Origin: Planctomycetota bacterium
GTDB taxonomy: Bacteria; Planctomycetota; UBA1135; UBA2386
NCBI GenBank assembly: GCA_016795295.1
Contig: JAEUHP010000275.1
Location: 2,195-66,194 of the forward strand
Direction of reading: 5' to 3'
Length of the DNA stretch: 64,000 bases
Below, piece after piece: positions 15,153-57,600 of the stretch. The notes below the pieces were generated by a model that saw only the letters and a program-made list of their open reading frames with translations, was not told the origin of the DNA and did no database searches. The position numbers and the translations under genes are program-made. The stretch's first letter is position 1; every line of letters begins with the position of its first letter.

Positions 15153-17330
15153 TCACACGATACGTTCGATCTTGGTGATCTGCACCCGCATCGGCCCTTG
15201 CGGAGTCGGAATCTCTCCGAACTCGCCGACCCCCTTGCCCAACAGGCCCTGCGCAATCGGCGCCAGGTAGTTGATGGTTTCGTCGTCGACCACGTCCCAG
15301 GGACCGAGCACCCGATAGACATGCTGGGCACCGGCGTCTTCGGCGAGGGTGATCTTGGTGCCGGGAGCGACACGGTCGTTCGGCACGTCCTGGTCTTCGA
15401 TCAGCCTGGCGAGGCGCAGCTGCTGGTCCATGTCCTGCGCGCGGCCGGTGAGGTTGCGCTGCTCCTCCATGGCCGATTCCCACTCGCTGTTCTCGCTGAG
15501 GTCGCCCAGCGCGGCAGCGGCGCCGATCGCCTTGCTGTTGGCGGGGATCTTCTCGTCGACCAGCACCCGGTACTCTTCCTTGATGCGGCGCAAGCCGTCG
15601 CGCGTGGTGTAGACGTAGTCCTTCTCCCAGAACGGCAGCTCGGGCTTCGCCAGGATGTCTGGGAATCGATCGGCCACCACGCGGTCGATCATGTCGACGA
15701 TTTCCTGCGAGAAGTCCTCACCGGCGCGCCGGAGGATGCCGACGTACTGGGTCAGGTCTTCTCGGGAGATGCCTTCCAGCGAACGGTTCAGCAGGCCGCG
15801 CTTGCCCGTCAGCAGGCTGGTCAAGCGCCCCAGCAAGCGGTTGTGCAGCGCAACCTTCTTGCGGTCCTCGTTGAGGATGCGCCCGAGGTGCAGCATCACG
15901 CGACCGACGGCGACCGGCGACGGGCACTGCTCGAGTCCCTCGAACACACCGTCGCCGTAGAGCTTGCCCAACAGATACAGCAACACCGGGTAGCGCTTCG
16001 GATAGGGCGCCACCTTCTCCCAGAGCGGCAGGCACAGAGCCCCCTGTTCGTGGGCCACCAGGATCTCGACGACGTTCTCGACCGTCGAGTTCGGCCATTC
16101 GGTGAGCAGCACGGAACACTGTGCCGCCCAGTTCTCGCCCAGCGCAGCGGGCAACAGCCGCACGGCGTGCTCGCGCGACGCCTGGGTGGCCAGCCGATCG
16201 ATCGCCGCCGGCACCAGGGAGCCGTCGGCCTTGACCATCAGCGCGCGCACCTCTTGGGTGGCCGGAATCGACGCCCGCAGGCCCTGCTCCTCGAGAAACA
16301 GGATGCCGTCGAGGATGTGGGCGTGGGTGGCCTTCTTCTCTTCGATCGCCTGCTCGACCGTCTTGGCCGCCAGGGCCAAGATCTGGTCTCGCGATTCTTC
16401 GTCGGTGCCGCGCGCCAGATAGTCGCGCAACACCCCGATGCGCTGGCCGAGGTCGTTTTGGTGGCCGAGCACTTGCGTGGCCTCCTCGACCAGACCCACG
16501 GGTCGCTCGCGCACCACGAACGTCGGCCGACTGGCCGTGCCTTCGACGCGCAGCCACGGATCCTTCGTGGCCGCAGTGCGCGCACGCTTCCAGAAGCCGG
16601 TCCAGTCCTTCTCGGACACCACCGATGGGCACAGCTCGGTCTTCACCTGCTGGCTGGTGATGGTGCCGCGGTAGAGCGTCGCCGCGCGCCGAATCAGGGT
16701 GCTCGGCATCTTCTCCGCTTCCATGCGCAGCTTGTCCATCTGCTGCAGCTTCATCGCGCGCAGATCGTTGGGGTCGAGCGGCTTGAAGCGGGACAGCAGC
16801 GTGTCGAGCGGGAACGCTTCGCGGCGCCCATTGGCGAACGCCACCATGGCTTCCTGGCTCGCCGAAACGAAGTGCTCGACGCAGCCCTCGCCCCAGCCGG
16901 CCGAGTGGTAGACCACGTGGCCGTTGGTGAAGCGGCGCAGGCGGTCGAACTCGAGGATCGCGGCCACGGCCGTGCCCGCGGCGAGTCCCGCGCGGGTGCT
17001 GAGCACCGGGAACCACTCCTCTGCGGCGTAGCGCTTCTCGATCAGCGCAGCCAGGGTCTTGGCCAACGCTTCGTTGTGCGCATTCCGCTTCAAAGCGCGG
17101 AAGCCGAGCTCGAGGGCCGCATCGATGGCTCCCTGCTTGGCGAGAGCGTCGATCATCGAGCTGGCCATCGCCAGGGCTCGGGCGACGATCTCACGTTCGC
17201 ACAGAATGTCGACGACCGTGGCGTAGCGGGGGGCGTCCTCAGCGCGGGGGGCCTTCACGGCCTCTCCCCATGCGGACTCGAGGCTGTCGATCTGAAGGGA
17301 ACGCGCGAGATGGACGAGGTCGGACGTCAA
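15153..17330 (-). CDS. Long GreA/GreB-family transcript cleavage factor homologue (about 570-aa N-terminal extension plus GreA module)
   Basis: The C-terminal 150 aa match GreA, including the acidic tip GDLSENSEWESAMEEQ and the C-terminal globular domain (VAPGTKITL...YRVLGPWD...INYLAPIAQGLLGKGVGE). The N-terminal region has no assigned family. Confidence 0.8.
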   Translation of the reverse strand: MTSDLVHLARSLQIDSLESAWGEAVKAPRAEDAPRYATVVDILCEREIVARALAMASSMIDALAKQGAIDAALELGFRALKRNAHNEALAKTLAALIEKRYAAEEWFPVLSTRAGLAAGTAVAAILEFDRLRRFTNGHVVYHSAGWGEGCVEHFVSASQEAMVAFANGRREAFPLDTLLSRFKPLDPNDLRAMKLQQMDKLRMEAEKMPSTLIRRAATLYRGTITSQQVKTELCPSVVSEKDWTGFWKRARTAATKDPWLRVEGTASRPTFVVRERPVGLVEEATQVLGHQNDLGQRIGVLRDYLARGTDEESRDQILALAAKTVEQAIEEKKATHAHILDGILFLEEQGLRASIPATQEVRALMVKADGSLVPAAIDRLATQASREHAVRLLPAALGENWAAQCSVLLTEWPNSTVENVVEILVAHEQGALCLPLWEKVAPYPKRYPVLLYLLGKLYGDGVFEGLEQCPSPVAVGRVMLHLGRILNEDRKKVALHNRLLGRLTSLLTGKRGLLNRSLEGISREDLTQYVGILRRAGEDFSQEIVDMIDRVVADRFPDILAKPELPFWEKDYVYTTRDGLRRIKEEYRVLVDEKIPANSKAIGAAAALGDLSENSEWESAMEEQRNLTGRAQDMDQQLRLARLIEDQDVPNDRVAPGTKITLAEDAGAQHVYRVLGPWDVVDDETINYLAPIAQGLLGKGVGEFGEIPTPQGPMRVQITKIERIV

Positions 17331-17472: not shown

Positions 17473-18150
17473 TTACTCGGCCAGGCGAGCAACCAGGGTG
17501 CTCACGTTGACCACCGAGCAGGACTCGTCGTAGGTGGCCAGCGGGATCTCGTCGAGGACCTCGTCGGTGGCGACGACGATGATGTAGAACTCCGCACCGT
17601 ACTGGCCGCGGAAGGCCACGATCTTGCGCAGCATCGGCGAGTTGACGTCTTCGATGGCCTCGATCACGACGGTCTTGCCTTCGCGGCCGCGGCTGCGCAG
17701 GACGACCATCGGGGCGTAGGCGGCGACCTGGCCATCCGGGAAGCGCACTTCGTAGTGGCGCGGGCTGTGGCTGTGCACCACGCCGGCGATCCCAAGTCGT
17801 TGACAGAGCTGCTGTTCGAGCTTGCCGGACAGCAGCCGGCCGCCGCACCGGCCGAAGCCGCTGCCGCCCCCGCCATGGGCCATCAACACGTCCAGCTCGT
17901 CGTTGCTGGTGAGGCCACGCGGCACGAACACCGGGCGGCCCTTGGTCATGGCGGGATGCGCCGCGCCCGGCGCCTGGGCTCCCACCCGCCCCTTGGTTGG
18001 CGCCGAACCCGCGCCAACCTTCTTGCCCGAAGTGGTTGCCGCACCAGCGGTTGAAGTGGTGGTGCCGGCAGTGGAAACAACCTTCTTGGTTTTGGCAGAA
18101 CTGCTGGGGGACTTGCCTGGAACAACCTTGCCTGGAACTTTCGATGCCAT
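17473..18150 (-). CDS. Hypothetical protein with Lys/Thr/Ala/Gly-rich basic N-terminal tail
   Basis: Internal ATG at 18150: MASKVPGKVVPGKSPSSSAKTKKVVSTAGTTTSTAGAATTSGKKVGAGSAPTKGR, followed by a globular C-terminal domain of about 150 aa. No family recognised. Confidence 0.5.
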   Translation of the reverse strand: MASKVPGKVVPGKSPSSSAKTKKVVSTAGTTTSTAGAATTSGKKVGAGSAPTKGRVGAQAPGAAHPAMTKGRPVFVPRGLTSNDELDVLMAHGGGGSGFGRCGGRLLSGKLEQQLCQRLGIAGVVHSHSPRHYEVRFPDGQVAAYAPMVVLRSRGREGKTVVIEAIEDVNSPMLRKIVAFRGQYGAEFYIIVVATDEVLDEIPLATYDESCSVVNVSTLVARLAE

Positions 18151-18482
18151 GGGGAACCTGGTGCTTCGGATCGAGCGCGCTCGGACCGAACGCCGAAGCT
18201 GCGAAATCGCCGAAGCTGCAAAAACCACGAGCGCGGCGGCACACGACCTTGCGCAGCCTTGCGCCACGTCGGACCGTTACTCGGTCCGGCCGGAACGGAT
18301 GCCGCCCGCCGCCGCATTCTACCAGCTTCTCTGTGCGCGGAAAGCCCCCCCTGCCCGGCTGGACTACGATCCGATCGGACGGCAGCCATCGGGCCACGGC
18401 CCTGGCTTGTCTGGAGCCTGCCGCGGCCGAGAATCCTGCCCAGCGCGAGGATTCTCGCGACCACGGTCCATAGTCTGCGCCG

Positions 18483-19031
18483 ATGCCTTCGCCCGCCACC
18501 ACCGAAACCGGGACAGCTGCCAAACCGAAGGGGCGGCCACGTGGCGCCGTGGTGGCCCTCCTGTGTGCCGTGGCTGCTGGGCTGGGTTCGGCTGCCTTCT
18601 CACGCGCCCACCGTGGTGGCGCGTCCGGCGCCATGGCGGACCTTGCCGATGGGGACCTGGACGGTGCGGCGCGCCGCATTGCCCTTCACCAGCTCCTGGC
18701 CACGGGCAGCTCCCCGCAGGCCACGACGGCGCAGCTGAGCCTCGGCCTGCTCGCAGCACTGGCTCTCGGGGCCGAACGCGAACACACCCAACTGGCAGCT
18801 CGGCTGGGCATCGGCTCCGGCCCACCACGCTGGCCAACCGATGGCGGGCCACCGTCCTGGTCCCTGGGCGACCCGATGCTGGCGAACGCCACCAGGGCCC
18901 TTGCGGCAGAGGCCAGGGCCGAGCGCGCCGAGGCCGTTCGTTGGTGGCGGCAGGTTGCGGCGCAGGCGAGGTTGGGCGGCGCGGGCTTCGCCGCGGGCGT
19001 GGCCGCAGCGGCCATCCAACGCCTGTCCTGA
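18483..19031 (+). CDS. Hypothetical membrane-anchored protein, first gene of the PilT-like unit
   Basis: 182-aa ORF. Basic N-terminus followed by a TM helix (AVVALLCAVAAGLGSAAF). 37 nt upstream of the next gene. Confidence 0.4.
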   Translation: MPSPATTETGTAAKPKGRPRGAVVALLCAVAAGLGSAAFSRAHRGGASGAMADLADGDLDGAARRIALHQLLATGSSPQATTAQLSLGLLAALALGAEREHTQLAARLGIGSGPPRWPTDGGPPSWSLGDPMLANATRALAAEARAERAEAVRWWRQVAAQARLGGAGFAAGVAAAAIQRLS

Positions 19032-19068
19032 AAGGTGGCTCAAGCAGGGCCGCGAGCCCGGCCGATCC

Positions 19069-20394
19069 ATGCCACGGAGGATGGAGCGGCGCATGGAGCA
19101 CGATCGTCTTGGAACACTGTTGGTCGACGGCGGCTTCGTGGACGAAGCGCAACTCGAGCGCTGCTTGCGCATCCAAGAGACCACCGGGGGAAGTCGGTCC
19201 CTCGGGCAGATCTTGGTGGAGTTCGGCGCCATCGACCGGCAAATGCTGCAGCGCGTGCTGAAGCTGCAGGCACACCGTGCCGAGCTGCGCTGCGCCGACG
19301 AGCCGGCGACCGACACGAGGAGTCAGGAGCTGCTGCGGGCCGCCGCCTCGAACCGCGCCTCCGAACTGGTCGTCAGCGAAGGGCGACCGGTGCGCATCCG
19401 AGTCGCCGGCGACTGGCGCGAACTGAACCACACTCCGGTCGCCGGCCCCGAGGCCTGGGAGTTCATCCGCGAAGTGATGGGTGCTTCGGTGCTCGAGGAG
19501 CTGGCGGAGCGGCACTGTGTCACTCGCCATTCCAGCGCCGAGGACCAACCGATCGTGGCCACGGCGTTCCGCCAACTCGACGGTGTGGCGGTGCGGGTGG
19601 CGTTCGTCGGCGCCCCGGCCAGCACGGCCGAGGAGCTGGGCATTCCGGCAGTGTTGCTGGAAACTGCGCAGCACGGCAGCGGCATGATCCTGGTGGTGAC
19701 CGACCGGCGCGAACCGCGCAGTTGGGCGCTGCGGCCCCTGCTCGCCGCGGCACTGGCGACGGCGGGCCGCCACGGAGTGGCCCTGTGCGACGAGCCGATG
19801 CAGCTGGCCGGCACCGCGGGCCTGCTGACGCCCCGGCGCTACGGGTTGCGTCCGGATCTACGTGCGGCGGCCTTGCGCAGCGCCCTGCGCACCGAACCGA
19901 GCGTGCTGGCGATCGCCGACGTGGGCACTCCCGAGACGTTCGACCTGGCTCTGGGAGCCGCGGCCAACGGCAGTCTGGTGGTCGCCTGCATCGACGCGGA
20001 GAGCGTGCTCGGTGCACTGCAGCGGGTGCTCGACTTCTACCCGGTGCACGAAGTGCAGCGGGTGCGCGCCACCCTCGCCGATGCACTGCGCGCCGTGCTG
20101 GTTCGCTGTTCACTGCCCAACGTCGAGCGCAACGGCACCGTGGTGGCCACCGAACTGCTGCGCATCGACGGGCCAGCACGCGAAACGCTGCGCAGCGGCG
20201 AACTCGGCGATCTGCGGCTCCTGATGCGCGCCACCGACGGCCGCTGTGGCTGGCCGCTGGACCACAGCCTCATGGAACTGCTCGCGGCCGGCCGCACTCG
20301 CATCGAAGACGTGTTCCCCCGCGCCGAGGAGAAGGCCTGGCTGCTGTCGCGCAGCCAGGAACTCGCGACCGCCAGCCCGAGCCCGGAGAGCTGA
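19069..20394 (+). CDS. MshEN (T2SSE_N)-domain protein fused to a degenerate PilT-like ATPase domain (predicted non-catalytic)
   Basis: Start at the ATG at 19069. RLGTLLVDGGFVDEAQLERCLRIQ matches every fixed position of the MshEN motif. The body aligns to PilT (ALRSALRTEPSVLAIADVGTPETFDLALGAAANGSLVVACIDAES). The Walker A position reads TDRREPRS and the His box is lost. Confidence 0.8.
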   Translation: MPRRMERRMEHDRLGTLLVDGGFVDEAQLERCLRIQETTGGSRSLGQILVEFGAIDRQMLQRVLKLQAHRAELRCADEPATDTRSQELLRAAASNRASELVVSEGRPVRIRVAGDWRELNHTPVAGPEAWEFIREVMGASVLEELAERHCVTRHSSAEDQPIVATAFRQLDGVAVRVAFVGAPASTAEELGIPAVLLETAQHGSGMILVVTDRREPRSWALRPLLAAALATAGRHGVALCDEPMQLAGTAGLLTPRRYGLRPDLRAAALRSALRTEPSVLAIADVGTPETFDLALGAAANGSLVVACIDAESVLGALQRVLDFYPVHEVQRVRATLADALRAVLVRCSLPNVERNGTVVATELLRIDGPARETLRSGELGDLRLLMRATDGRCGWPLDHSLMELLAAGRTRIEDVFPRAEEKAWLLSRSQELATASPSPES

Positions 20395-20395
20395 G

Positions 20396-21385
20396 ATGCA
20401 GAACCAACGACTCAATGCGCTGCTCGAGGTCCTGCGCCGTGCCGACGCCGCGGCGCTGCACCTCGCGCCAGGCCTGGCACCGTGCATGCGGCTCGCAGGA
20501 CGCATCGTGCCGATCGAGGCGCAATCCTGGTCCGCCGACGAGATCACGGAACTGGTGCGCGACCTGCTGTTCGCCGACCACCGGCAGTTCCTGCACGACC
20601 ACGGCTTCGTCGAAGTGCTCTACGTGGCGGGTGACGGACGCCGCTTCCAAGCCACCGTCGCCGACCACGCAGGTGTGCCCAGCCTGGTGCTGCAGGCACT
20701 CGGTGCGGCACCCCCGCGCCTGGCCGATCTCGGACTGCCGAACCAGGTCGCACTGCTGGCCCAGGTCCGCTCCGGGTTGATCGTGGTGGCCGGGGGCTTC
20801 GGTTCGCGACGCGACGACACCTGCCAGGCGATCGTCGACGCCTGGAATCAGGACGCCGCGCGCCACGTGGCCACGTTCGAGGCCTCGATCACCTGCGTGC
20901 ATCCGCCGGCAGCAGCGCTGCTGCACCAGCGTCAGGTCGGCATGCACACCACCTGCGTCGCCGAGGGCGTGGCACAGGCCCTGGCCCTGGGTGCCGATTC
21001 GCTCGCGGTGTGGGCGGCAAACGACGCCGACGACCTCGATGCGGTGCTGAGTGCTGCCGAAGCTGGCTGCGCCGTGCTGCTCAATTCGTCCGCCGGATCG
21101 GTGACCGGCGCACTGCAGCAGATCCTGACGCTGGCGCCCTTGGACAACCGCACCCGGGCCCGCACCCGCTTGGCACGCGTGCTGCGCGGGGTCTTGGCCC
21201 AGCAACAGGTGACGGTGCCGAACCGGACCTCGAGCGCCGTGATCGCGGAAGTGCTGATGGTGACGGGTGGGGTGCGCGCCGCGATTCGCTCCGGCAACCT
21301 GCACGAACTGCCGGGGCTCATGGAGCGCGGGCGCGGCCACGGCATGCAGACCCGTGGCATGGCGCTCGCCGACCTGGCGAAGTAG
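20396..21385 (+). CDS. Second degenerate PilT-like protein (predicted non-catalytic)
   Basis: The ATG lies 1 nt after the upstream stop. PilT-like N-terminus (LNALLEVLRRADAAALHLAPGLAPCMRLAGRIVPI). The Walker A position reads GGFGSRRD, the Walker B region ADSLAVWAANDADD, and the His box AGCAVLLNSSAGS. Confidence 0.75.
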   Translation: MQNQRLNALLEVLRRADAAALHLAPGLAPCMRLAGRIVPIEAQSWSADEITELVRDLLFADHRQFLHDHGFVEVLYVAGDGRRFQATVADHAGVPSLVLQALGAAPPRLADLGLPNQVALLAQVRSGLIVVAGGFGSRRDDTCQAIVDAWNQDAARHVATFEASITCVHPPAAALLHQRQVGMHTTCVAEGVAQALALGADSLAVWAANDADDLDAVLSAAEAGCAVLLNSSAGSVTGALQQILTLAPLDNRTRARTRLARVLRGVLAQQQVTVPNRTSSAVIAEVLMVTGGVRAAIRSGNLHELPGLMERGRGHGMQTRGMALADLAK

Positions 21386-21554
21386 ACGCCGCGGCTGCGA
21401 CCAGCGGCGCGACTGCAGCGCCCGCGCGAAGGTGCCAGCGCGCCCGGTGCGCGGTGGCCCGGCACCCTGCGGCGCGGGCGTGCCGAACGCCCTTCGACTG
21501 CCGCGATTCCGCCGCTGAACGCGCGGCGGCAACGAGAAATCTGCACCAGGGCTC

Positions 21555-21581
21555 TCAAGTCCCTTGGCATCGCGCCGATCA
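21555..21581 (+). promoter_or_regulatory. Sigma-28 (FliA)-type promoter candidate for the flagellin gene
   Basis: TCAA-N15-GCCGATCA, compared with the consensus TAAA-N15-GCCGATAA. The spacing is exact, and it lies about 70 nt upstream of the flagellin ATG. Confidence 0.5.
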
Positions 21582-21651
21582 TCGCGATGGGGCGAGGAGA
21601 TCGAAGCCTGGCCCCTGACTCGGCGAATCGAAACAGGCAAAGGATCAAGTC

Positions 21652-22482
21652 ATGGGCCTTCGTGTCAACACCAACATCGCATCGATCAATGCCCAGCGAA
21701 ACACTTCGCTGGTGACCACCCGACTGGCGCGCAACTACCAGCGCTTGTCGACGGGTCTGCGCATCTCCACGGCTGCCGACGACGCAGCCGGTCTCGCCAT
21801 CTCCGAGCGCCTGCGTTCGCAGGTGCGCTCGCTGTCCCAGGCCTCGCGCAACGCGAACGACGGCATCTCCCTGGTGCAGGTCGGGGAAGGCGCCCTCAAC
21901 GAGGTCAGCAACATCCTGGTGCGGCTGCGCGAGCTGACCATCCAGTCGGCGAACGGCTCCTCCTCCACGGCGGACAAGAACACCATCAAGGAGGAGTTCG
22001 ACAGCCTGGTCAACGAGATCAACCGCATCGCCCAGTCGACCGAGTTCAACGGCATCAAGCTGCTGGACGGCTCGTCCAGCTCGGTGACGTTCCAGGTCGG
22101 CATCAACACCACCACGGGCGTCGACCAGCTCGACGTCACCCTGACTCCCGCGCTGAGCACCAGCCTCGGCCTCAACTCGGTCGACATCGGCTCGGGCGGC
22201 AGCACCAGCTACGCCATCCAGCAGATCGACGCCGCGGTCAACACCGTGTCGCAACTGCGTGGCAAGTTCGGTTCGCTGCAGAACCGCCTGCAGTCGACGA
22301 TCGCCAACATCGGCGTGGCCGGCGAATCGCTGTCCGCCGCCGAGAGCCGCATCCGCGACGTCGACGTGGCCTTCGAGACCGCGGAGATGACCCGCAACAA
22401 CATCCTGCAACAGGCTTCGATCTCGATCTTGTCGCAGGCGAACCAGCAGCCGCAGTCGGCTCTGCAGCTGCTCCGCAGCTGA
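21652..22482 (+). CDS. fliC: Flagellin
   Basis: 276 aa. The N-terminus MGLRVNTNIASINAQRN...RLSTGLRISTAADDAAGLAISERL and the C-terminus LQNRLQSTIANI...AESRIRDVDVAFETAEMTRNNILQQA...LSQANQQPQSALQLL are canonical D0/D1 flagellin sequences. AAGGA lies before the ATG. Confidence 0.95.
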   Translation: MGLRVNTNIASINAQRNTSLVTTRLARNYQRLSTGLRISTAADDAAGLAISERLRSQVRSLSQASRNANDGISLVQVGEGALNEVSNILVRLRELTIQSANGSSSTADKNTIKEEFDSLVNEINRIAQSTEFNGIKLLDGSSSSVTFQVGINTTTGVDQLDVTLTPALSTSLGLNSVDIGSGGSTSYAIQQIDAAVNTVSQLRGKFGSLQNRLQSTIANIGVAGESLSAAESRIRDVDVAFETAEMTRNNILQQASISILSQANQQPQSALQLLRS

Positions 22483-22547
22483 GCGAGGGCACGCTCGGGG
22501 GCGGAACGCTGGCGCCTTCGGCGCCGCGCACGACGCATCCTTTGCCA

Positions 22548-22603
22548 CCGCGGGGGTGATGCCCCGCGGAACTCCGGCCGGGCAGTCCCGGCCGGAGTCT
22601 TGT
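22548..22603 (+). terminator. Two consecutive GC-rich hairpins downstream of fliC, in the convergent gap with lptB
   Basis: ccgcgggg-gtgatg-ccccgcgg is an 8-bp stem. ctccggccggg-cagt-cccggccggag is an 11-bp stem followed by tcttgt. Confidence 0.5.
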
Positions 22604-22741
22604 ACCCATCGCTGCCGTGGCCGCGGCCGAACCACGCTTGCAAGCACTGGCCACGGCCGCTCGTTGCGGAGCGCCTTGCGCTCACGAGAAGCCCTGCGCA
22701 GCGCGAGGCTGCTCGTGACCACCGCCCCGGTCGTGCCGGGC

Positions 22742-23539
22742 TCACTCCAGGTCGAGACCGCGCTCTTCCTCGTCGGAGATGCCTTCGCCGAACGAGTTGC
22801 CGAGGTAGACGCGCCGCACCTGTTCGTTGGCGACGATCGCCTGGGGATCGCCCTCGGCGATCACCTTGCCGGCATTGATGATGTAGGCGCGATGGGTGAT
22901 GCGCAGGGTGGCGATCACGTTGTGCTCGGTGATCAGGATCGCGATGCCCGAACGCGCCAACGCCGCCAGGATCTGCTGGATCTCTTCCACCGTGATCGGA
23001 TCGACCCCGGCGAACGGCTCGTCGAGCAACAACAGGCGCGGCTCGGTGGCCAGCGCGCGGGCGATCTCCAGGCGCCGCTTTTCGCCGCCGGACATGGTCT
23101 CGGCGATCGACTCGGCGACGTGCATCAGTTGCAGATCCTGCAGCAGTTCGCGGGCGCGTTGTTCGCGGTCCTTGCGCCGCATGCCACGCGCTTCCAGCAC
23201 GGCACGCACGTTGTCGATCGCCGACATCTTCTTGAACACCGACTCCTGCTGCGCCAGGTAGCCGAGGCCGATGCGGGCGCGCTGGTGCATCGCCAGCCGC
23301 GTCACGTCGCGGCCGTCCAGCCACACGGTGCCGGCATCCGGCACCACCATGCCGACCACCATGCGGAACGTGGTGGTCTTGCCCGCACCGTTCGGGCCGA
23401 GCAGGCCGATGATCTCCCCTTCGCGCACGGCGATCGACGCGTGGTCGACCACGCGCCGGCCGCGGTAGGCCTTGACCAGGCCGTCGGTGCGCAGGATCAC
23501 CGGCGCCGGCACAGGCGCACTGGTTGCACTGTCGGTCAT
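22742..23539 (-). CDS. lptB: LPS export ABC transporter ATP-binding protein LptB
   Basis: Start at MTDSATS (23539), in an ATGA overlap with the lepB stop. Walker A GPNGAGKTT, signature MSGGEKRR, Walker B LLLDEPFAG, and an LptB-type C-terminus VRRVYLG. Confidence 0.9.
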   Translation of the reverse strand: MTDSATSAPVPAPVILRTDGLVKAYRGRRVVDHASIAVREGEIIGLLGPNGAGKTTTFRMVVGMVVPDAGTVWLDGRDVTRLAMHQRARIGLGYLAQQESVFKKMSAIDNVRAVLEARGMRRKDREQRARELLQDLQLMHVAESIAETMSGGEKRRLEIARALATEPRLLLLDEPFAGVDPITVEEIQQILAALARSGIAILITEHNVIATLRITHRAYIINAGKVIAEGDPQAIVANEQVRRVYLGNSFGEGISDEEERGLDLE

Positions 23540-25257
23540 CGCACCGTGCCGAAGCGGCCGGGCCAGGTGCTCCCGGTCAGCCAGGAGAACGGCCGGCACG
23601 GATAGAACACCAAGAGACCGCGACCCTGGATGTCGCTGCGCGGCACGAACGACACGCCCACCGTGTTGCCCGGCGTGGTCTCGACGGCGCGGAATTCGTC
23701 GCGGCCGTCCTGGCCGGCGGTGCCGGGTTTGCGGAACACCACGCCCTGGGCCGCCCAGCCAGCACCGGGATCGCCTTCGAGACGCAGGATCTCGCCGTAC
23801 TCGTCGATCATCACCACCGCATGGCGGCTCGGGATCGCGATCGGCGTCTCGTCGCGGTCCGGCGGCTGGTCGAGCGGCACCGGCCGCTTGTTGCCGCGCA
23901 CCGGCCGCGCGCCTTCGGTGCCTTCGGGCACGATCTGGTTGCCCTTGACCCACACCGTGACCGCGGTGAAACCACGCGAGTCTATCGAGCCGAGGGTGTT
24001 GTCACCCATCATGTAGTAGTGGCCTTCGGGCACTTCGATCAGCTCGGGTGCGGTCGAACGCGTGTAGTGCAGGTCGCGCCACAAACGCACGTCGTCGAGG
24101 CGCAACGTGCCCTTGCCCTTGGCCGTGAACTGCGGGGTGACGGCCTGGTCGGCGGTGGCGACGCACGGCTTGCCCGGTTCGTACGGCAACACGCAGCCGT
24201 CCCGGCAGGTCCACGCATTGGTGTCGAAGCGCTGCACTTCACGTCCCGCACGCCAGGCGATCAGCTGGTCGTCGACGTGGGCGAACGCCAGCTCGGTGGC
24301 GCTGCGCGCGGGCAGTTCGACGGCGAACTCGGGCGACTCGGCGAGTGGCTGGCCGTCCTTGCCGCGCACCTGCAGGCGGCCCTTGCCACCCTTGATCGCG
24401 AAGGTGTAGGTGAGCCGATCGTGGCCCGGGCGTCGCACCTCGATCTCGAAGGCGAGTTCGTCGAGGCCGTCTTCCGGAGTCACCAGCGCCGCGAGTTTGG
24501 CGTCCGGCACGATCTCCTGCGGCATCGGCCCCATGCCGGCCCGGATCGCCGCCGCGGCCTTGGTCGGGTAGCCGTCCCAGTACAGGTCGACGAAGCCGCC
24601 GTGGTCGGCGTCGCGGAAGTAGAGCTTGCGGGTGCTGCCGCCCTCGAGCTTGAGCGCGAAGCCGCGCTCGTCTTCGCTGCCGGCGCTGCTCGGAGTCACG
24701 GCCCAGGCCTTGTCGAGCCCCTTGCTCTCGCCGCCCACCAGGCGCCGCGCCGGATACACGTCGCGCCACATCAGCTCCTGCAGGTCGTCGGGCTTGCGGA
24801 TCGCGGCGTAGCTGCGCTTGCCGCCGGCGTCGGTGACCTGGTACAGGTTGCCGCCGCCGATCGTGAGCCGGTCGCCGGGCATGCCGACCAGGCGCTTCAC
24901 GTAGTTCTGGTTCTTCTGCAGCGGGTACTTGAACACCGTGATGTCCCAGCGCTGCGGTTCGCGCACGGTGGCTGCGGCCTTGTCGACCAGGATGCGGTCG
25001 AACACCCCGGCGTTGTTGTCGCCCATCAGGGTCGGCTGCATCGACGAAGTCGGGATCACGTAGGCTTCGATGCAGAACCACTTCAGCAGCACGGCGGCCA
25101 GGATCGCGACGCCGAACGCTTCGAGGTTGGTGCGCACCGGGCCCATGGTCGGGGGCTTCTTGCCCTTCTTGGCCGGCTCGGCGGCAGCGGCAGCCCGCAA
25201 CGCGGCCTCGGCGGCGCTGGTGACGGCGGAACTCGGCGGAATGGCTGGGCTGGTCAT
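23536..25257 (-). CDS. lepB: Signal peptidase I, unusually long form
   Basis: Start at the ATG at 25257. Box B IPTSSMQPTL, box D YVKRLVGMPGD, box E YYMMGDNTLGSIDSRGF. Large insertions lie between the boxes and after box E. Confidence 0.85.
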   Translation of the reverse strand: MTSPAIPPSSAVTSAAEAALRAAAAAEPAKKGKKPPTMGPVRTNLEAFGVAILAAVLLKWFCIEAYVIPTSSMQPTLMGDNNAGVFDRILVDKAAATVREPQRWDITVFKYPLQKNQNYVKRLVGMPGDRLTIGGGNLYQVTDAGGKRSYAAIRKPDDLQELMWRDVYPARRLVGGESKGLDKAWAVTPSSAGSEDERGFALKLEGGSTRKLYFRDADHGGFVDLYWDGYPTKAAAAIRAGMGPMPQEIVPDAKLAALVTPEDGLDELAFEIEVRRPGHDRLTYTFAIKGGKGRLQVRGKDGQPLAESPEFAVELPARSATELAFAHVDDQLIAWRAGREVQRFDTNAWTCRDGCVLPYEPGKPCVATADQAVTPQFTAKGKGTLRLDDVRLWRDLHYTRSTAPELIEVPEGHYYMMGDNTLGSIDSRGFTAVTVWVKGNQIVPEGTEGARPVRGNKRPVPLDQPPDRDETPIAIPSRHAVVMIDEYGEILRLEGDPGAGWAAQGVVFRKPGTAGQDGRDEFRAVETTPGNTVGVSFVPRSDIQGRGLLVFYPCRPFSWLTGSTWPGRFGTVR

Positions 25258-25376
25258 GGGCGTCGCAGGCCGGGCAGTGTCGTCGTTGGCCGGCGACGGC
25301 GCCAGGGGGAAGCGGCGGAGCCGGCGGAGCGGGCGCATTGGCACCGGGGCCCCCGCTGCCGATGCCACCGGCTCTT

Positions 25377-46039: not shown

Positions 46040-46056
46040 CCTAGCAGCCCGTTGAA
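46040..46056. repeat. Terminal inverted repeat of the IS (left on the + strand)
   Basis: CCTAGCAGCCCGTTGAA is the exact reverse complement of 47491-47507. Confidence 0.85.
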
Positions 46057-47444
46057 GAAGCCGCCTCCGGCGCTGCGCTGGAGTGCTCCCGAGCCCAAGG
46101 CAACTGATCCTGAAGGCGGTCCGCGATTTCGTCGATCCGACGCCAGGTCGCGACCAGCACGACCAGGATCGTCGACCACAGAGCTTTACAGGTCGTGAGA
46201 AGGGATCGCACCGACGCCCACTCCCTCGGCTTCCCGACCCCGATCAGCTTGCGCAGGATCACGCCCAGATTGTGGGCCATGACCGTGACGAGGTAACGCT
46301 TGCCAACCTCGGCAAGGCCGCGAATCCACGATCGGCGTGCGCCACCGGTCGTGCACACATGCGCAAAGCTGCGCTCGACCACCTCCGCTCGTCGTCGCTG
46401 CAGTTGCTTGCCCTTCTCGCGATCGGTCCGGCGCTGGTTCTCGTAGACCGCCTCGCGCCAGCCATCAGGCTTGTCGTCCCAGCGGCGCTTCCGCGAGTCA
46501 CGGCGCGGCGCCACATACGTGCGGATGCCGCGTTCGCCAAGCCAGGCCAGAGTCTCGGTCTTGTGGTAGCCCTTGTCGGCGACGACCTCGGCGATGCGGC
46601 ACTCTTGCTTCGTGGCGTCGTTCAGGTTGCCCTGCGCATCGACCACGGTGTCCTTCACCGTCTCGCCATCCGCAGCGTCGGCCGGCTTCACGTCGGCAGC
46701 GACCACGATCTCGGTCTCGAGATCGACGGCGTTCTCGGCCTTGTAGCCAAGCCCCGTCGTGCCGTCCTTCATCTTGGTGATGCGCGCATCGGGATCGCTC
46801 GGAGACTGCCAGTCGTCGTTGCTGGTCTTCTTGCCCTTCCGCGTGCGATCGAACTGCCGCAGTTGGTCGTCGGTTGGATCCTCGATGCCGGCCTCCTTGG
46901 CCAACTTCGTCAGGTACTGCTTCCACGTCGCACCGCCGTCACGCCGCACGATCGACTTCATCGCGGCGTTGGCTTCGAGCGTCGTCGCGTCGACGCCGAT
47001 CGCCTTGCCCTTCAGCAGCTTCTTCTCGAAGGCGATCTTCAGCACGAAGGCGAACACCTGCTCGATCAACTCCTTCGGCATCCGCTTGCGGATCACGGTC
47101 AGACTCGAGTGCTCGGGCGACAACTCCGTCGGCTTCAGGCCGAGGAAGGTCCGGAGCGACAGGCTGTCGCTGCAGCGCCAGGCGATCCCGCGCTGCGAGT
47201 CGATGCCCTCGAAGTAGCCGATGAAGAGCATGCGGAAGAACACACCGGGCGGGATCGAGGGGCGGCCGCCGTCGCGGTAGAGCGGCTCGCATAGGCCCTC
47301 GACGTAGGCATCGAACTTGGCCTCGGAGAGCACCTTGTTCAGCGCCGCGTAGAAGGGGTGGCCGGGCGAGCGCGGCAGCGCGCTCGTTGGCACCATCAAC
47401 TCCTGCTGGAACTGATCACGACGTCGACCGAGGGCCATGCACAA
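46041..47444 (-). CDS. IS1182/IS5-family DDE transposase
   Basis: 467 aa. GHPFYAALNKVL...GRPSIPPGVFFRMLFIGYFEGI, IGVDATTLEANA, VVADKGYH and ERSFAHV are DDE transposase motifs. Confidence 0.9.
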   Translation of the reverse strand: MCMALGRRRDQFQQELMVPTSALPRSPGHPFYAALNKVLSEAKFDAYVEGLCEPLYRDGGRPSIPPGVFFRMLFIGYFEGIDSQRGIAWRCSDSLSLRTFLGLKPTELSPEHSSLTVIRKRMPKELIEQVFAFVLKIAFEKKLLKGKAIGVDATTLEANAAMKSIVRRDGGATWKQYLTKLAKEAGIEDPTDDQLRQFDRTRKGKKTSNDDWQSPSDPDARITKMKDGTTGLGYKAENAVDLETEIVVAADVKPADAADGETVKDTVVDAQGNLNDATKQECRIAEVVADKGYHKTETLAWLGERGIRTYVAPRRDSRKRRWDDKPDGWREAVYENQRRTDREKGKQLQRRRAEVVERSFAHVCTTGGARRSWIRGLAEVGKRYLVTVMAHNLGVILRKLIGVGKPREWASVRSLLTTCKALWSTILVVLVATWRRIDEIADRLQDQLPWAREHSSAAPEAASSTGC

Positions 47445-47490
47445 CTTCTACGTACGAGGTCCGGGCAGAGGCTCGTCGGAGTCGCAGTTT

Positions 47491-54068: not shown

Positions 54069-54473
54069 TCACTGCACCACGTCCGCGTCGATCTGGTAGA
54101 GCATCACGACCACACCCTCTTCCTTGACCTCGCCAACGTAGAACTTGCCCGTGACCGAGACGATGCCGGGCTTGATCTCCATGGTCTGCCCCTCGGGCAG
54201 GGTGCAGAACACCACTTCGTTGAGCTTCGGCGTGCCATTGCAGCCGCAGGCTTCGTTGATGATCAAGAACTGGTTGACCGGGTTGCTGCCCGGGGTCTCG
54301 CGCATCATGAAGCCGGAGATGCTCACGACCTGCTCGTCGAGGTTGGTGATCTCCTTGGGCAGAGCTTTGCCTTCCTCGTAGGTGTAGCCGGCGAGCACGC
54401 TGAAGCTGGTCTTGATCGGATCGCCGAGCGGGAGCGCGGCGAGCGCGAGCAGGAGGGCGGAGCGCAGGATCAT
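54069..54473 (-). CDS. DUF3299 family protein
   Basis: The ATG at 54473 gives MILRSALLLALAALPLG (signal). ISGFMMRE...NQFLIINEACGCNGTPKLNEVVFCTL...VSVTGKFYVG fits the DUF3299 pattern. Confidence 0.6.
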   Translation of the reverse strand: MILRSALLLALAALPLGDPIKTSFSVLAGYTYEEGKALPKEITNLDEQVVSISGFMMRETPGSNPVNQFLIINEACGCNGTPKLNEVVFCTLPEGQTMEIKPGIVSVTGKFYVGEVKEEGVVVMLYQIDADVVQ

Positions 54474-54657
54474 GGTGGGGGCTGGCAGGATAGCAGATCG
54501 ACCGACCGAGACCTCGGGACCGGGAAATCCCCGAACCAGCTCCCCGCCGCATTCCGAACTGCCGGCACAGGGATGGGCGACCGGACGCTGTGCCGCTATG
54601 GTAGCCGTGGTGAGTGTGCCCACAGCTTCGCTGCAGCTGCCGAACGAGTTCGCATCC

Positions 54658-57600
54658 ATGATGATGCAATGCCTTTATCGGAAGGCATTTGCATCAATCC
54701 ATCAGAACCAGGGCGAACTGCTCGCGCGCGGCTCGCTGGAGGCGCTGCTGCAGCTCCACACCTTGTGCCTGCGGCTGGGCTTCGACGTACGACGGCGCTG
54801 GTTGGGCCGGCGCATCCGGGCCGGGTGGCCCCAGCGGCTCGCGGCGCAGAGCTGCCGGGTTCGCGACCTGCTGCGCCGAGGCGATCTGCTCGCCGCTTGG
54901 GAGGCCACCCGTGGCCAGGTGCCCCCGGCCGTCGACGCCGCGGAGCGCGTCGATTGGCTGCTCGCCGCGACCCGCGTGCACTCGCAGCTGCGCGACTTCG
55001 CGACCGCCGACACCCTGCTGGACGAAGCCGAGCACCTGCTGCCTGGCCACCTCGACACACTGCGTGAGCGGGCCTGGAGCCAGCTCGATCGCGACGACGT
55101 CCAAGGAGCGTTGCAGCGCATCGAGGCAGCCATCGCCGCCCATCCCGAGCTGGTCGAGCTGCGGTTGCAACACACCTGGCTCCTGCACGACGCGAACGCG
55201 CCGGGCCTCGGGGCGCAACTCGCCGAACTGCGCCAGCGCTGTGAGTCGCCGCTGCTCGACGGCCTGCACGCCAACCACTGCCTGGAGCACGGCGAGCCGG
55301 CCCAAGCCCGCCAGATCTGGGAGCAACTGCTCGAGGAGCCGCACCACGAACCGCGCATGCGGCGCATGTGGCGGTTTGCCCTGATCCGCACCTGCCGTGA
55401 CCTCGGCGACGACGCAGCGGCGCTGGCCCATGCCGAGCGCGCCGGCCGCTGCGCCGCCGAGGAGGCCGCGCAACTGCGCGCCCACCTGGCGCAGCCGGCT
55501 CCGCGCGGGACCACTCGGGTGGTGCTGCCGGTGCCGTTCGTGCGGCAAGACCACTCGACCTGCTCGCCGGCGACCATGGCCTCGCTGCTGGCGACGTTCG
55601 GGATGCACGTGGACCAGCGCGAGATCGCCCGCCAGATCACCAGCGACGGCACCGCCAGCCACGACGAGCTGCTGTGGGCCGAGCAGCGGGGTCTGGTGAT
55701 GCGCTGGTTCCAGTTCGACGTGGCCGCGGCGCACGCCCTGCTCGACTTGGGCCTGCCGTTCGCGATCACCACCCGCTTCGAAACCTCCAGCCACCGGCAA
55801 GCGGTGGTCGGCTACGACCGCGTCCTGAACACGTTCCTGCTGCGCGACCCAACCGGCAATTTCCGCCGCGAGGTGCCCACGGCGTGGCTGGTGAAGATCA
55901 CCGGACGCGGTGGCGACTGTGCCCTGCTGCTGCCCGCGGAGGTGGCGGCGCGCCACGAACTGCCAGCGCTGCCGATGGCGAACGAAACCAGGGAATGGCT
56001 GCTCGCCAGGGTCGCCTTCCGCGAACACCGCCGGCACGACGCCGAGGCACGGCTGCAGGCACTCGGCGAACTGCCGCCAGGCCCCCTGCGCACCGAGATC
56101 GAACTGCGCCTGGCCCGCGAACGCGGCGATCGGCGGCGGCAGTTGGAGCTGTGGCGCGAACTCTGGCAGAACGCTCCGGACGACGACTACTGGCGCCATC
56201 ACTACGCCGGCGAGCTGCTCGACCAGAACCGCTGGCACGAAGCGCGTGAACGGCTCGAAGCGTGGGCGCCCACCACCGAGTCGCCGTTCGTGTTGCAGAT
56301 GCTCGCCGATCTGTGGCGCGCCGATGCCCGCCGCCGCGGCGACGCCGAACAGACCATGCGCCGGGTGGTGCGCCAGACCGGCCGCGACGGCCGCTCCTGG
56401 CACCGTCTCGCACGCATCGTCGGCGCCGACCCTGCGCGCAAAGAGCTTGCAGTCGAACTCACCCGCATCGCCGCAGGCTTGGCGCCGTTCGACGAGTGGC
56501 TCGCCAGTGAGTACCACCAGCGGCTCTGCAGCCTCGGGCGGATCGACGCAGGACTGCGCTTCCTCGCCGAACGCAAGGTGGTCCGCGGCGGCCGTTCCGC
56601 GGCCATGGCGATGACCTACGCAACCGCCCTGGAAGAGCAGCACCAGCCGGAAGCCGCCATCGAAGTTCTGCGCGCCGCCCTGGCCGGAGACGAGGATGCG
56701 GGCCAGGCCCGGCTGCACTTGTTCGGCATCTTGCAGCGCATGCACCGCTTGGACGAAGCCGAGCAGGTGATGCAGAGTCCGAGCCTGCGACCGATCGACC
56801 GCGCCTGGTGCCAGTACCGTCTGGCGACGGCACGCGGCGACCACCAGGCCGCGCAGCTGGCCCTCAGCGCCTGCATCGAAGCGGATCCGTGGCACGAGAG
56901 CGCCTGGCCGCTGCGGCTCGAACACCTGCTCGAACACTCAGGCGCACCGGCAGCACGCGCGGCAGCCGACCAGCTGGCGGCCAGCGCCGATGCACCCCCT
57001 TCGCTCCGCCTGCGGGTGGTGGAGTTCCTCGAACGGCTCGAAGCCTACGACGCAGCCGATCAGCTCCTGCAGCAGATCTGCGCCGCACACCCGCACGAGC
57101 CGTGGCTGCGCGGTGCGCTGGCGCGGCGCCTCTTGCGGCGCAACCGCACGGCGGCGGCGCGCCCGCTGCTCGACGAACTGCGCATCACGTCGCCCGACTC
57201 GAGCCCGGTGTGGTTCGATCTGGGCGTCCTGGCCCGGCAGGAAGGCGACGTCGATGCGGCCCGTGCGGCGATGCGACGGTCGTTCGAGCTCGATCCGAGC
57301 AACGTCGGCGCGGTCCGCCAACTCTTCGACTGGGCCCCCTCGGCCGAGGTCGCGGCCGAGGACCTGCGGTTCGCCCTGGCGACCCTGATCCAGCGCCCGG
57401 TGCCGCCCGACTTCGACACCCTGGCAGGCCTGCTCGAGCTCCTGCCGACCTTGCCGGCCAGCGAAGGGGCGGCGTTCTTCGCCAAGCTGCAGGAGATCCA
57501 CCCCAACGAAGTGGACCATCGCAGCGCGCACGTCGAGTTCGTGGGGCGCACCGATCCGGCCCGAGCCGCGCAGCTGGCCGAACAGCTGGCTGCCGAGCGT

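Follow-up and report, generated by a model that had tools for sequence, protein, structure and literature searches.

The locus

We analyzed a 64 kb stretch of DNA (hereafter, the window; G+C content about 70%) from an uncultured clade of Planctomycetota that is known solely from metagenome-assembled genomes (MAGs), in which it was placed by protein and locus matches. Four genes stand in a row on its plus strand, with minus-strand blocks on both sides: gene 1, which encodes a small membrane protein; gene 2 and gene 3, which encode two proteins derived from the ATPase PilT; and a flagellin gene, fliC (Table 1). In the window both PilT-derived proteins have lost the residues of ATP hydrolysis, and the first bears an N-terminal module that is predicted to bind cyclic di-GMP (c-di-GMP). 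The two genes are conserved as an adjacent pair and are under purifying selection, and comparison with more distant relatives places them at the degenerate end of an old, widespread and uncharacterized family of c-di-GMP-linked PilT pairs.

An earlier, sequence-only reading of this DNA had described genes 2 and 3 as a c-di-GMP-sensing pair of pseudo-ATPases upstream of an orphan flagellin gene. Its statements about the sequence all hold, with a correction to the start of gene 2. This start is most likely ATG 19093 rather than ATG 19069, because all 22 relatives in our alignment A1 begin at the equivalent M-[ED]-D-x-R-L-G, because gene callers assign 433 amino acids (aa) to the closest relatives, and because a GGAGGA Shine-Dalgarno sequence lies 11 nucleotides (nt) upstream, whereas ATG 19069 abuts the conserved -10 element of a promoter. 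The genes are indeed co-directional and the reported 1 nt gap between genes 2 and 3 stands (the ATG of gene 3 begins 1 nt past the stop of gene 2, TGAgATG), but the 37 nt reported between genes 1 and 2 become 61 nt with the corrected start.

Table 1. Features of the gene 1 to fliC region (window coordinates)
Feature	Position	Strand	Description
Gene 1	18483..19031	+	182 aa; one N-terminal transmembrane helix, conserved helical domain
Sigma-28-like promoter motif of gene 2-gene 3	19039..19066	+	CTCAAG-N17-CCGAT
Shine-Dalgarno sequence of gene 2 (GGAGGA)	19076..19081	+	Part of a CGGAGG block conserved 10-15 nt before the ATG at most loci
Gene 2	19093..20394	+	433-aa MshEN-pseudo-PilT: predicted c-di-GMP sensor module, PilT N-domain, dead ATPase core
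MshEN_N-type c-di-GMP-binding module (predicted)	19105..19269	+	Motif I, 7-residue spacer, motif II
Degenerate Walker A, gene 2 (TDRREPRSW)	19699..19725	+	Family consensus GERGIGR[AS]E
Degenerate Walker B (SVLAIADVGT, Glu to Asp) and His box (GSLVVACIDAE), gene 2	19900..20001	+
Gene 3	20396..21385	+	329-aa PilT-like partner, translationally coupled to gene 2; catalytically dead in the window's sublineage
Degenerate Walker A, gene 3 (GGFGSRRDD)	20792..20818	+	Orthologues GFFGSGKST
Degenerate Walker B (DSLAVWAAND) and His box (GCAVLLNSSAG), gene 3	20996..21097	+
Sigma-28-type promoter of fliC (putative)	21554..21581	+	CTCAAG-N15-CCGATCAT = TCAA-N15-GCCGATCA
fliC	21652..22482	+	276-aa flagellin, D0/D1 domains only; Flagellin_N and Flagellin_C matches; own promoter

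Genes 2 and 3 encode PilT-derived proteins without catalytic residues

Both proteins are homologous to PilT over their full length, as the sequence-only reading had held. The NCBIfam model TIGR01420 (PilT/PilU) matches gene 2 from end to end with an E-value (E) of 1.7e-36 (126 bits) and gene 3 likewise with 4.1e-51 (174 bits), the family cutoff being 319; Pfam T2SSE has no match in gene 3. Each protein also aligns end to end with solved PilT/PilU structures. The AlphaFold2 model of gene 2 (predicted local distance difference test score, pLDDT, 87.2; predicted template modeling score, pTM, 0.77) finds its best structural matches in PilT2, PilT4 and PilU, at E ~1e-27. A remnant of the PilT-specific AIRNLIRE motif is present in both, as PARETLRS in gene 2 and GVRAAIRS in gene 3; the family consensus is AxRxx[IVL]R, and about half of the eight positions are kept.

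Alignment confirms that the Walker A Lys, the Walker B Glu and both His-box histidines are gone from both proteins. Where PilT has the Walker A sequence GPTGSGKST, gene 2 has TDRREPRSW and gene 3 GGFGSRRDD; the Walker B residues GE of PilT are AD and WA, respectively, and the His box H...H has become S...D and C...S. At the Asp box gene 2 has CDEPM and gene 3 has FEASI. We compared these positions with those of orthologues; one scan of species-representative genomes yielded 45 Planctomycetota loci. The Walker A Lys is absent from every gene 2 orthologue (about 42 of 47 have Arg), the Walker B Glu is Asp, the His-box positions are Arg and Asp, and the MshEN motifs are conserved. In the window's sublineage gene 2 has lost its P-loop glycines as well.

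A predicted c-di-GMP-binding module at the N-terminus of gene 2

The published MshEN domain contains two tandem 24-residue motifs of the form RLGxx(L/V/I)(L/V/I)xxG(L/V/I/F)(L/V/I)xxxxLxxxLxxQ (PMC5013675). Motif I of gene 2, RLGTLLVDGGFVDEAQLERCLRIQ (nt 19105-19176), fits this form exactly; motif II (nt 19198-19269) begins with Ser and matches at every other position. The two are separated by seven residues (ETTGGSR), which makes a 55-residue module where the published form has a five-residue spacer and 53 residues. NCBIfam NF053729, a model of the c-di-GMP motif domain, scores 43.1 bits on gene 2 (cutoff 38), so the earlier identification of an MshEN motif followed by a second copy after seven residues is borne out. 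The same region aligns with Vibrio cholerae MshE (5HTL; E 6e-6), and the longer spacer is also seen when PilF GSPII-C and Geobacter PilB are aligned. In the AlphaFold2 model this region forms four helices N-terminal to the PilT N-domain, a block with pLDDT 68-88.

Across the family the module has the consensus RLGxILLEGGxVDEAGLERCLAIQ - xLTGxxR - PIGQILVEQGLxDxxTLxRLLxLQ, with a spacer that ends in Arg or Lys and a second motif that begins with Pro. This layout, a longer spacer and a Pro-first motif II, is that of the third GSPII domain of Thermus PilF. Thermus PilF GSPII-C binds c-di-GMP (PMC11731258). From these similarities it is reasonable to expect that members of the family bind c-di-GMP; for the window's copy this prediction is less secure, since its motif II starts with Ser.

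The state with both proteins dead is a late one

Most gene 3 orthologues are better preserved than the window's copy. The sequence GFFGSGKST, an intact Asp box and QRE are found in 43 of 48, and about 34 of the 48 retain the Walker B Glu; Asp, Lys, Ala or Ser replaces it in about 14 lineages, with the GxxGxG frame retained. The His box is gone throughout the core clade, and the deeper-branching L076 retains its second His. The Walker A Lys has been lost at least four times independently: in the window's sublineage, in L002, in L045 and in P0261. The first of these comprises the window, L053 (98% identical), L051 (75%) and P0260 (67%); about 28 C-terminal residues are missing from its gene 3, which has 329 aa in all members. 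A sequencing or assembly error in gene 3 can be ruled out, because the same residues occur in the independent L053 assembly, in L051 and in P0260, all with 329 aa.

The description of the two proteins as a pseudo-ATPase pair is thus correct for the window, where both are non-catalytic, but not as the state of the family, in which 43 of 48 gene 3 proteins have an intact P-loop. The alignments indicate that most relatives pair a dead sensor with a P-loop-intact partner and that having both proteins dead is a late, lineage-specific state. That catalytic residues have been lost again and again while selection persisted suggests that what is being maintained in gene 3 is something other than hydrolysis.

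This distribution bears on the possibility that the family works as a c-di-GMP-gated adaptor joined to a weak motor. The dead gene 2 protein would recruit or gate a P-loop-intact gene 3 protein, which would hydrolyze ATP slowly and retract a pilus; this would be the general state, a natural counterpart of dead PilT acting with PilU, and the window's lineage would depart from it, its activity gone and the pair on the way to being lost or to taking up another role. The Lys found in 43 of 48 gene 3 orthologues, the Asp-box Glu kept in most, the Walker B Glu of about 34 of them and the second His of L076 are all consistent with this idea, and genes 2 and 3 have degenerated further together in the window's clade. 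There is also a precedent in PilU, which needs PilT even when PilT is ATPase-dead (PMC6762196, PMC6821130). Against these points, the His-box histidines are absent from nearly all core-clade gene 3 orthologues and the Walker B Glu has been substituted in many lineages. In addition, the ratio of nonsynonymous to synonymous substitution rates (dN/dS) in the window's clade is not raised relative to other pairs, and the 329-aa form of gene 3 is stable over 67-100% identity, pointing to a settled function and not to decay. We regard a gated weak motor as unlikely.

Conservation and ancestry of the pair

The pair is conserved and adjacent in about 48 species-level Planctomycetota lineages. Gene 3 directly follows gene 2 at each of the 45 reference loci, after a short gap and within the same synteny block. 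About 107 protein clusters are more than 40% identical to gene 2, all of about 430 aa, and those named by taxon come from Planctomycetota MAGs. Between the window and L051, gene 2 has a dN/dS of 0.26 and gene 3 one of 0.24; over ten pairs from the clade, including P-loop-intact ones, the ratios are 0.16-0.43 and 0.11-0.33, respectively. The values for the window lie inside the range of relatives with intact P-loops, and on this ground pseudogene decay was rejected. The sequence-only reading had made its proposal depend on conservation of the gene pair in relatives, and this conservation, with selection, is what we find.

The combination of an MshEN-like N-terminus and a PilT core, in proteins of 430-460 aa, extends well past the clade in a full-library profile search, grading continuously from fully intact proteins such as P0143 into degenerate ones. 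We looked up five more distant genes of this kind, and each is directly followed by a second PilT-like gene (341-482 aa); neither fliC nor pilus genes adjoin any of the five pairs. Both genes have intact catalytic motifs in L054 and L057, where they resemble an ordinary PilT/PilU pair save for the N-terminal module. The partner in L060 (L060 11312-12760) has a C-terminal PilZ domain, a second c-di-GMP receptor domain within the pair. Because catalytically intact pairs of the ancestral type also stand alone, the earlier argument that distance from pilus genes speaks against a pilus role does not hold; pilT-pilU loci commonly stand apart from other pilus genes.

Two further groups of PilT-like proteins came to light. 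P0127, P0129, P0131, P0132 and P0137 (720-740 aa) each contain two complete PilT-like modules in one polypeptide, with Walker A intact; such natural fusions suggest that paired PilT paralogues are physically coupled. The second group, in Gemmatimonadota (L046-L050), was considered as orthologous and rejected: these are single PilT-like genes in which the Lys is Arg. Their Walker A reads, for example, GVPGSGRTS in L047 9800-11071, a His box is missing, and genes for Wzz/BY-kinase and sugar transferases are their neighbors. Downstream of the PilT-like gene of L047, at 2-6 kb, are CheY, a CheZ-like gene, flagellin and FliW, which we considered too little to build on.

A promoter motif common to gene 2 and fliC

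The sigma-28 consensus is TAAA-N15-GCCGATAA. The flagellin gene, which is 84-91% identical across the clade, has the related motif CTCAAG-N15-CCGAnnAT about 97 nt before its ATG in 32 of 33 loci, with TAAAG variants of the -35 element in L012, L064 and L073. Flagellin genes of unrelated taxa in metagenomes have the canonical TAAAG-N15-CCGATAA at the same spacing. In 46 of 47 loci, including loci without gene 1 or an adjacent fliC, a similar motif, T[CA]AAG-N17-[CT]CGAT, precedes gene 2 by about 54 nt. In 1.74 Mb of locus sequence this motif has 47 matches, 46 of them upstream of gene 2, and the pattern CTCAAG-N14-18-CCGAT occurs only twice in the window, at the gene 2 and fliC promoters, where 0.11 matches are expected. 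No fliA gene is present in the locus sequence examined.

A conserved promoter 5' of gene 2, together with a stop and a start 1 nt apart, implies that genes 2 and 3 form their own transcription unit, and the motif that this unit has in common with the flagellin gene makes their co-regulation very likely. The link to flagellar regulation that had been proposed from gene order thus gains independent support. The N17 spacer may be explained by a different or related sigma factor, by another regulator or by a deliberately weaker promoter.

Physical linkage to fliC is less uniform. The pair lies directly upstream of fliC in 33 of the 45 reference loci, as the sequence-only reading had it for the window, but the other 12 have no fliC at this place. 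On metagenomic contigs with the clade's fliC and enough upstream sequence, the pair is beside it in 11 of 12. In the genomes without fliC at the locus, constraint on genes 2 and 3 is equal or stronger (dN/dS 0.19 and 0.14 for L035 versus L038). Among freshwater Planctomycetes, the presence of flagella and pili varies (PMC6461901).

These observations bring up a flagellar role. The retraction motor would have become a ring that needs no ATP, is gated by c-di-GMP and acts directly on the flagellum as a brake, a clutch or an assembly checkpoint, made from the late flagellar promoter together with flagellin. A c-di-GMP-loaded pseudo-PilT ring, with its partner, would sit on the motor, the stator or the export apparatus; the module would have been fully re-purposed from pili and would resemble YcgR or MotI in function, with a different fold. 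The promoter architecture common to gene 2 and fliC, the position directly 5' of fliC at most loci and the complete loss of motor chemistry in the window's lineage under persisting selection would all fit such a role. The c-di-GMP effectors YcgR and PdeH belong to the FliA class 3 regulon of Escherichia coli, as does NfrB, which has an MshEN domain; a c-di-GMP brake gene, ycgR, is thus itself under FliA control (PMC8669469). On the other side, fliC is the sole flagellar structural gene linked to the pair, 12 genomes keep a constrained pair without a neighboring fliC, and the intact homologous pairs of other lineages have no flagellar context. Moreover, we know of no PilT-family protein that contacts the flagellum. 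On balance a flagellar brake, clutch or assembly regulator seems improbable to us. If it were true, the ring would be a flagellar regulator of a class not described before, and no earlier case of a flagellum controlled by a PilT-family protein is known.

The region between the fliC promoter and its ATG (window 21582-21651, also in L001-L045) has conserved blocks of its own, GATCGAAGCC, CGGCGAATC and, before the ATG, AGGCAAAGG, with a variable hairpin between them. No Rfam family matches this leader. Its blocks and hairpin suggest that flagellin is controlled after transcription, through a CsrA/FliW-type mechanism for instance. The stretch from fliC through LptB to signal peptidase (window 21700-25300) is 92-100% identical in nucleotide sequence to L051, with one 300-nt bin at 83%; elsewhere identity to L051 is 71-81% in gene 2-gene 3, 52-59% in gene 1 and 73-93% in downstream genes. 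The synonymous divergence (dS) from L051 is 0.08 for fliC and 0.65-0.73 for genes 2 and 3. Recent recombination or very strong codon constraint could account for the similarity of the fliC block.

Gene 1 and the surrounding genes

Gene 1 has no match in Pfam, NCBIfam or PADLOC. Its helical domain follows the pattern LADGDLDG...WAG.LAA.AL...LGDP.L.N...AE..GD...W..V..Q, and its AlphaFold2 model is all-helical (pLDDT 63.5). We aligned 36 orthologues, which are 35-45% identical across loci; dN/dS is 0.22. In L016 (8862-9860) the orthologue has the conserved helical domain duplicated internally, and in L035, L036, L037 and L039 there is no space for the gene. Since gene 1 lies upstream of the conserved gene 2 promoter, it is probably outside the gene 2-gene 3 transcription unit. 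It had been proposed as a membrane anchor for the pair, for which its position, its low identity and the four loci with no room for it leave little support. From this comparison, gene 1 is a real gene that is poorly conserved, dispensable and loosely tied to the pair.

The minus-strand block 5' of gene 1, which is divergent, encodes an alpha/beta hydrolase, a 725-aa GreA fusion and an uncharacterized 264-aa protein; the block 3' of fliC, which is convergent, encodes LptB and signal peptidase I. This synteny block is kept clade-wide, and in other loci the variable gap between fliC and LptB contains unrelated genes (AcrB, TetR, FG-GAP and phosphonate-binding proteins). The GreA fusion (window 15153-17330, minus strand) has a long N-terminal extension, resembles the long GreA of Chlamydia and Leptospira and is 49-78% identical across the clade; in the 98%-identical relative its Pfam match is HTH_GRAD. 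The 264-aa protein (window 17473-18267, minus strand) has a low-complexity N-terminus rich in Lys, Ala and Thr and a conserved C-terminal half weakly like ribosomal protein L4, and it is found in every clade locus that reaches far enough upstream.

A Pfam scan found no other flagellar or pilus genes in the window, the remainder of which consists of housekeeping and unrelated genes. Nor does any Rfam family reach its gathering score in the window. Around the genes there is no promoter-like site of the canonical sigma-70 type; a single terminator-like site, against a chance expectation of 1.8, lies 5' of gene 1 on the minus strand. An anti-phage defense system was considered and rejected, as PADLOC gave no match. 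Farther away are an insertion sequence-type DDE transposase (DUF772 and DDE_Tnp_1; window 46041-47447, minus strand), in the window's lowest-G+C stretch (0.65), and a 1,740-aa protein (window 54388-59610, plus strand) with a Peptidase_C39-like domain and many tetratricopeptide repeats.

Because the block is syntenic throughout the clade, the position of the pair carries little information, which leaves some room for an altogether different target, such as a secretion or exopolysaccharide machine or pure signaling, or for a functionless relic held in a conserved block. Myxococcus PilB is reported to signal to exopolysaccharide production (PMC5544727), and the Gemmatimonadota genes with Arg for Lys adjoin Wzz/BY-kinase and sugar-transferase genes. 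Secretion or exopolysaccharide genes are not consistently linked to the pair, however, and its purifying selection, tight translational coupling and dedicated conserved promoter oppose a relic. We consider readings of this kind quite improbable.

Discussion

The reading that we favor, tentatively and with a little less than even confidence, is that genes 2 and 3 encode a non-motor, c-di-GMP-gated descendant of a PilT/PilU pair that docks at the pilus platform and is made together with the late flagellar genes. The unit descends from a c-di-GMP-sensing ATPase pair of the PilT/PilU type. Its first protein has dropped every catalytic residue in this clade and kept the four-helix bundle that is predicted to bind c-di-GMP, and its second keeps the ATP-binding P-loop in most species and has lost the Lys, the Glu and C-terminal helices in the window's lineage. 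Since both proteins are under purifying selection, they would act by binding and not by ATP-driven pulling. We predict that both assemble as PilT-like rings or stacks and dock at the PilT site on the cytoplasmic face of the type IV pilus platform, where c-di-GMP on the MshEN module would set the occupancy or conformation of the ring; the choice of this target machine is the most conjectural part of the proposal. Expression from the sigma-28-like promoter would lead to production in the flagellated swimmer cell, so that the c-di-GMP level would alter pilus dynamics through occupancy rather than work and feed into the swim-to-attach decision.

There is precedent for such a ring. ATPase-dead PilT still supports PilU-driven retraction (PMC6762196, PMC6821130), which shows that a PilT ring can have a function when dead and that PilT and PilU interact as separate rings. 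The sequence-only reading had raised a hetero-hexamer as a possibility; in the published case PilT and PilU each make a homo-hexamer of their own (PMC6821130).

Several observations weigh against this proposal. As to the target, no pilus genes occur in any locus examined, except for a Tad-type secretin 9 kb off in L059, and retraction cannot be powered in the window's lineage, in which both proteins are dead. As to the ligand, the Ser of the window's motif II is outside even the relaxed published set [RKPN], and the spacer has seven residues instead of five. As to the flagellar connection, the spacer of the gene 2 promoter is 2 nt longer than that of the fliC promoter and the sigma-28 norm. 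The absence of fliC from the locus in 12 of 45 reference genomes implies at least five independent events, and because the synteny block includes housekeeping genes (the GreA fusion, LptB and signal peptidase), adjacency to fliC alone could be inherited gene order. Finally, L064 (1752-3247) lacks genes 2 and 3: gene 1 is followed directly by fliC and its promoter, whose -35 element is the canonical TAAAG; from this locus, gene 1, the gene 2-gene 3 pair and fliC appear to be separable modules.

These findings have implications for how c-di-GMP acts on pili. The pilus ATPases on which it acts, MshE, PilB and PilF, are extension ATPases, and our literature search turned up no account of a c-di-GMP receptor module on PilT, the retraction side. 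Since MshEN-PilT proteins occur as intact enzymes and also in a conserved dead form, second-messenger control of retraction can be tested directly. The series from intact through sensor-dead to both-dead pairs, under purifying selection, is a natural experiment on what a PilT ring does beyond ATP hydrolysis, and it echoes the finding that dead PilT enables PilU. The promoter motif of genes 2 and 3 and fliC gives a concrete prediction of how swimming and attachment may be wired in a large uncultured Planctomycetota clade. There is also a practical consequence: the database labels 'twitching motility protein PilT' and 'TadA ATPase' imply an activity that is impossible for the dead proteins.

Comparison with known systems

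As the sequence-only reading had supposed, no characterized system with this architecture has been published, as far as our search found; the literature held nothing specific on an MshEN-PilT or pseudo-PilT system, or on c-di-GMP, flagellum or pilus control in Planctomycetes. The nearest relative is the PilT-PilU tandem of type IVa pilus retraction ATPases in Vibrio cholerae, Pseudomonas aeruginosa and Acinetobacter baylyi. Like genes 2 and 3, pilT and pilU are adjacent, co-directional paralogues that stand apart from pilus genes and encode the same two-domain fold, and the first protein may be dead and still be needed by the second (PMC6762196, PMC6821130). Unlike PilT, the gene 2 protein is naturally dead in every species and bears an N-terminal c-di-GMP module. 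Gene 3 has no His box in the core clade, and from the window's copy the Walker A Lys and Walker B Glu are missing too. Both proteins score far below the TIGR01420 cutoff, and the link of the pair to pili is hypothetical.

The N-terminal module has its counterparts in MshE, PilB and Thermus PilF, with which gene 2 has in common tandem 24-residue motifs and a predicted four-helix bundle at the N-terminus of a secretion-family ATPase (PMC5013675). In gene 2, however, the module sits on a PilT-type (retraction-type) core and not on one of the PilB/GspE type, and only the MshEN_N bundle is present; the spacer is seven residues and not five, and the window's motif II is Ser-first. In contrast to these three proteins, the gene 2 ATPase is dead, so c-di-GMP cannot regulate its catalysis.

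The coupling of a c-di-GMP receptor gene to a promoter of the late flagellar type recalls the E. coli FliA class 3 genes for YcgR, a PilZ brake, and NfrB, an MshEN glycosyltransferase (PMC8669469). Here the output would be a PilT-like ring rather than a PilZ protein or a glycosyltransferase; the sigma-28 dependence is predicted from the promoter motif, whose spacer exceeds the canonical one by 2 nt. PilZ has no match in gene 2 or gene 3, so any resemblance to brakes of the YcgR/MotI type would be functional only.

In the catalytically intact pairs from metagenomes, P0143/L054, P0146/L057 and P0159/L060, the Walker B Glu, the His box, GPTGSGKT and motifs like AIRNLIRE have been kept, unlike in the window's genes. 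None of these pairs is beside fliC, and the regions upstream of the catalytically intact ones have no clear CTCAAG-N17-CCGAT motif. They have the same two-gene order, protein sizes and N-terminal module as genes 2 and 3, and this suggests that they likely represent the ancestral form from which the window's pair is derived.

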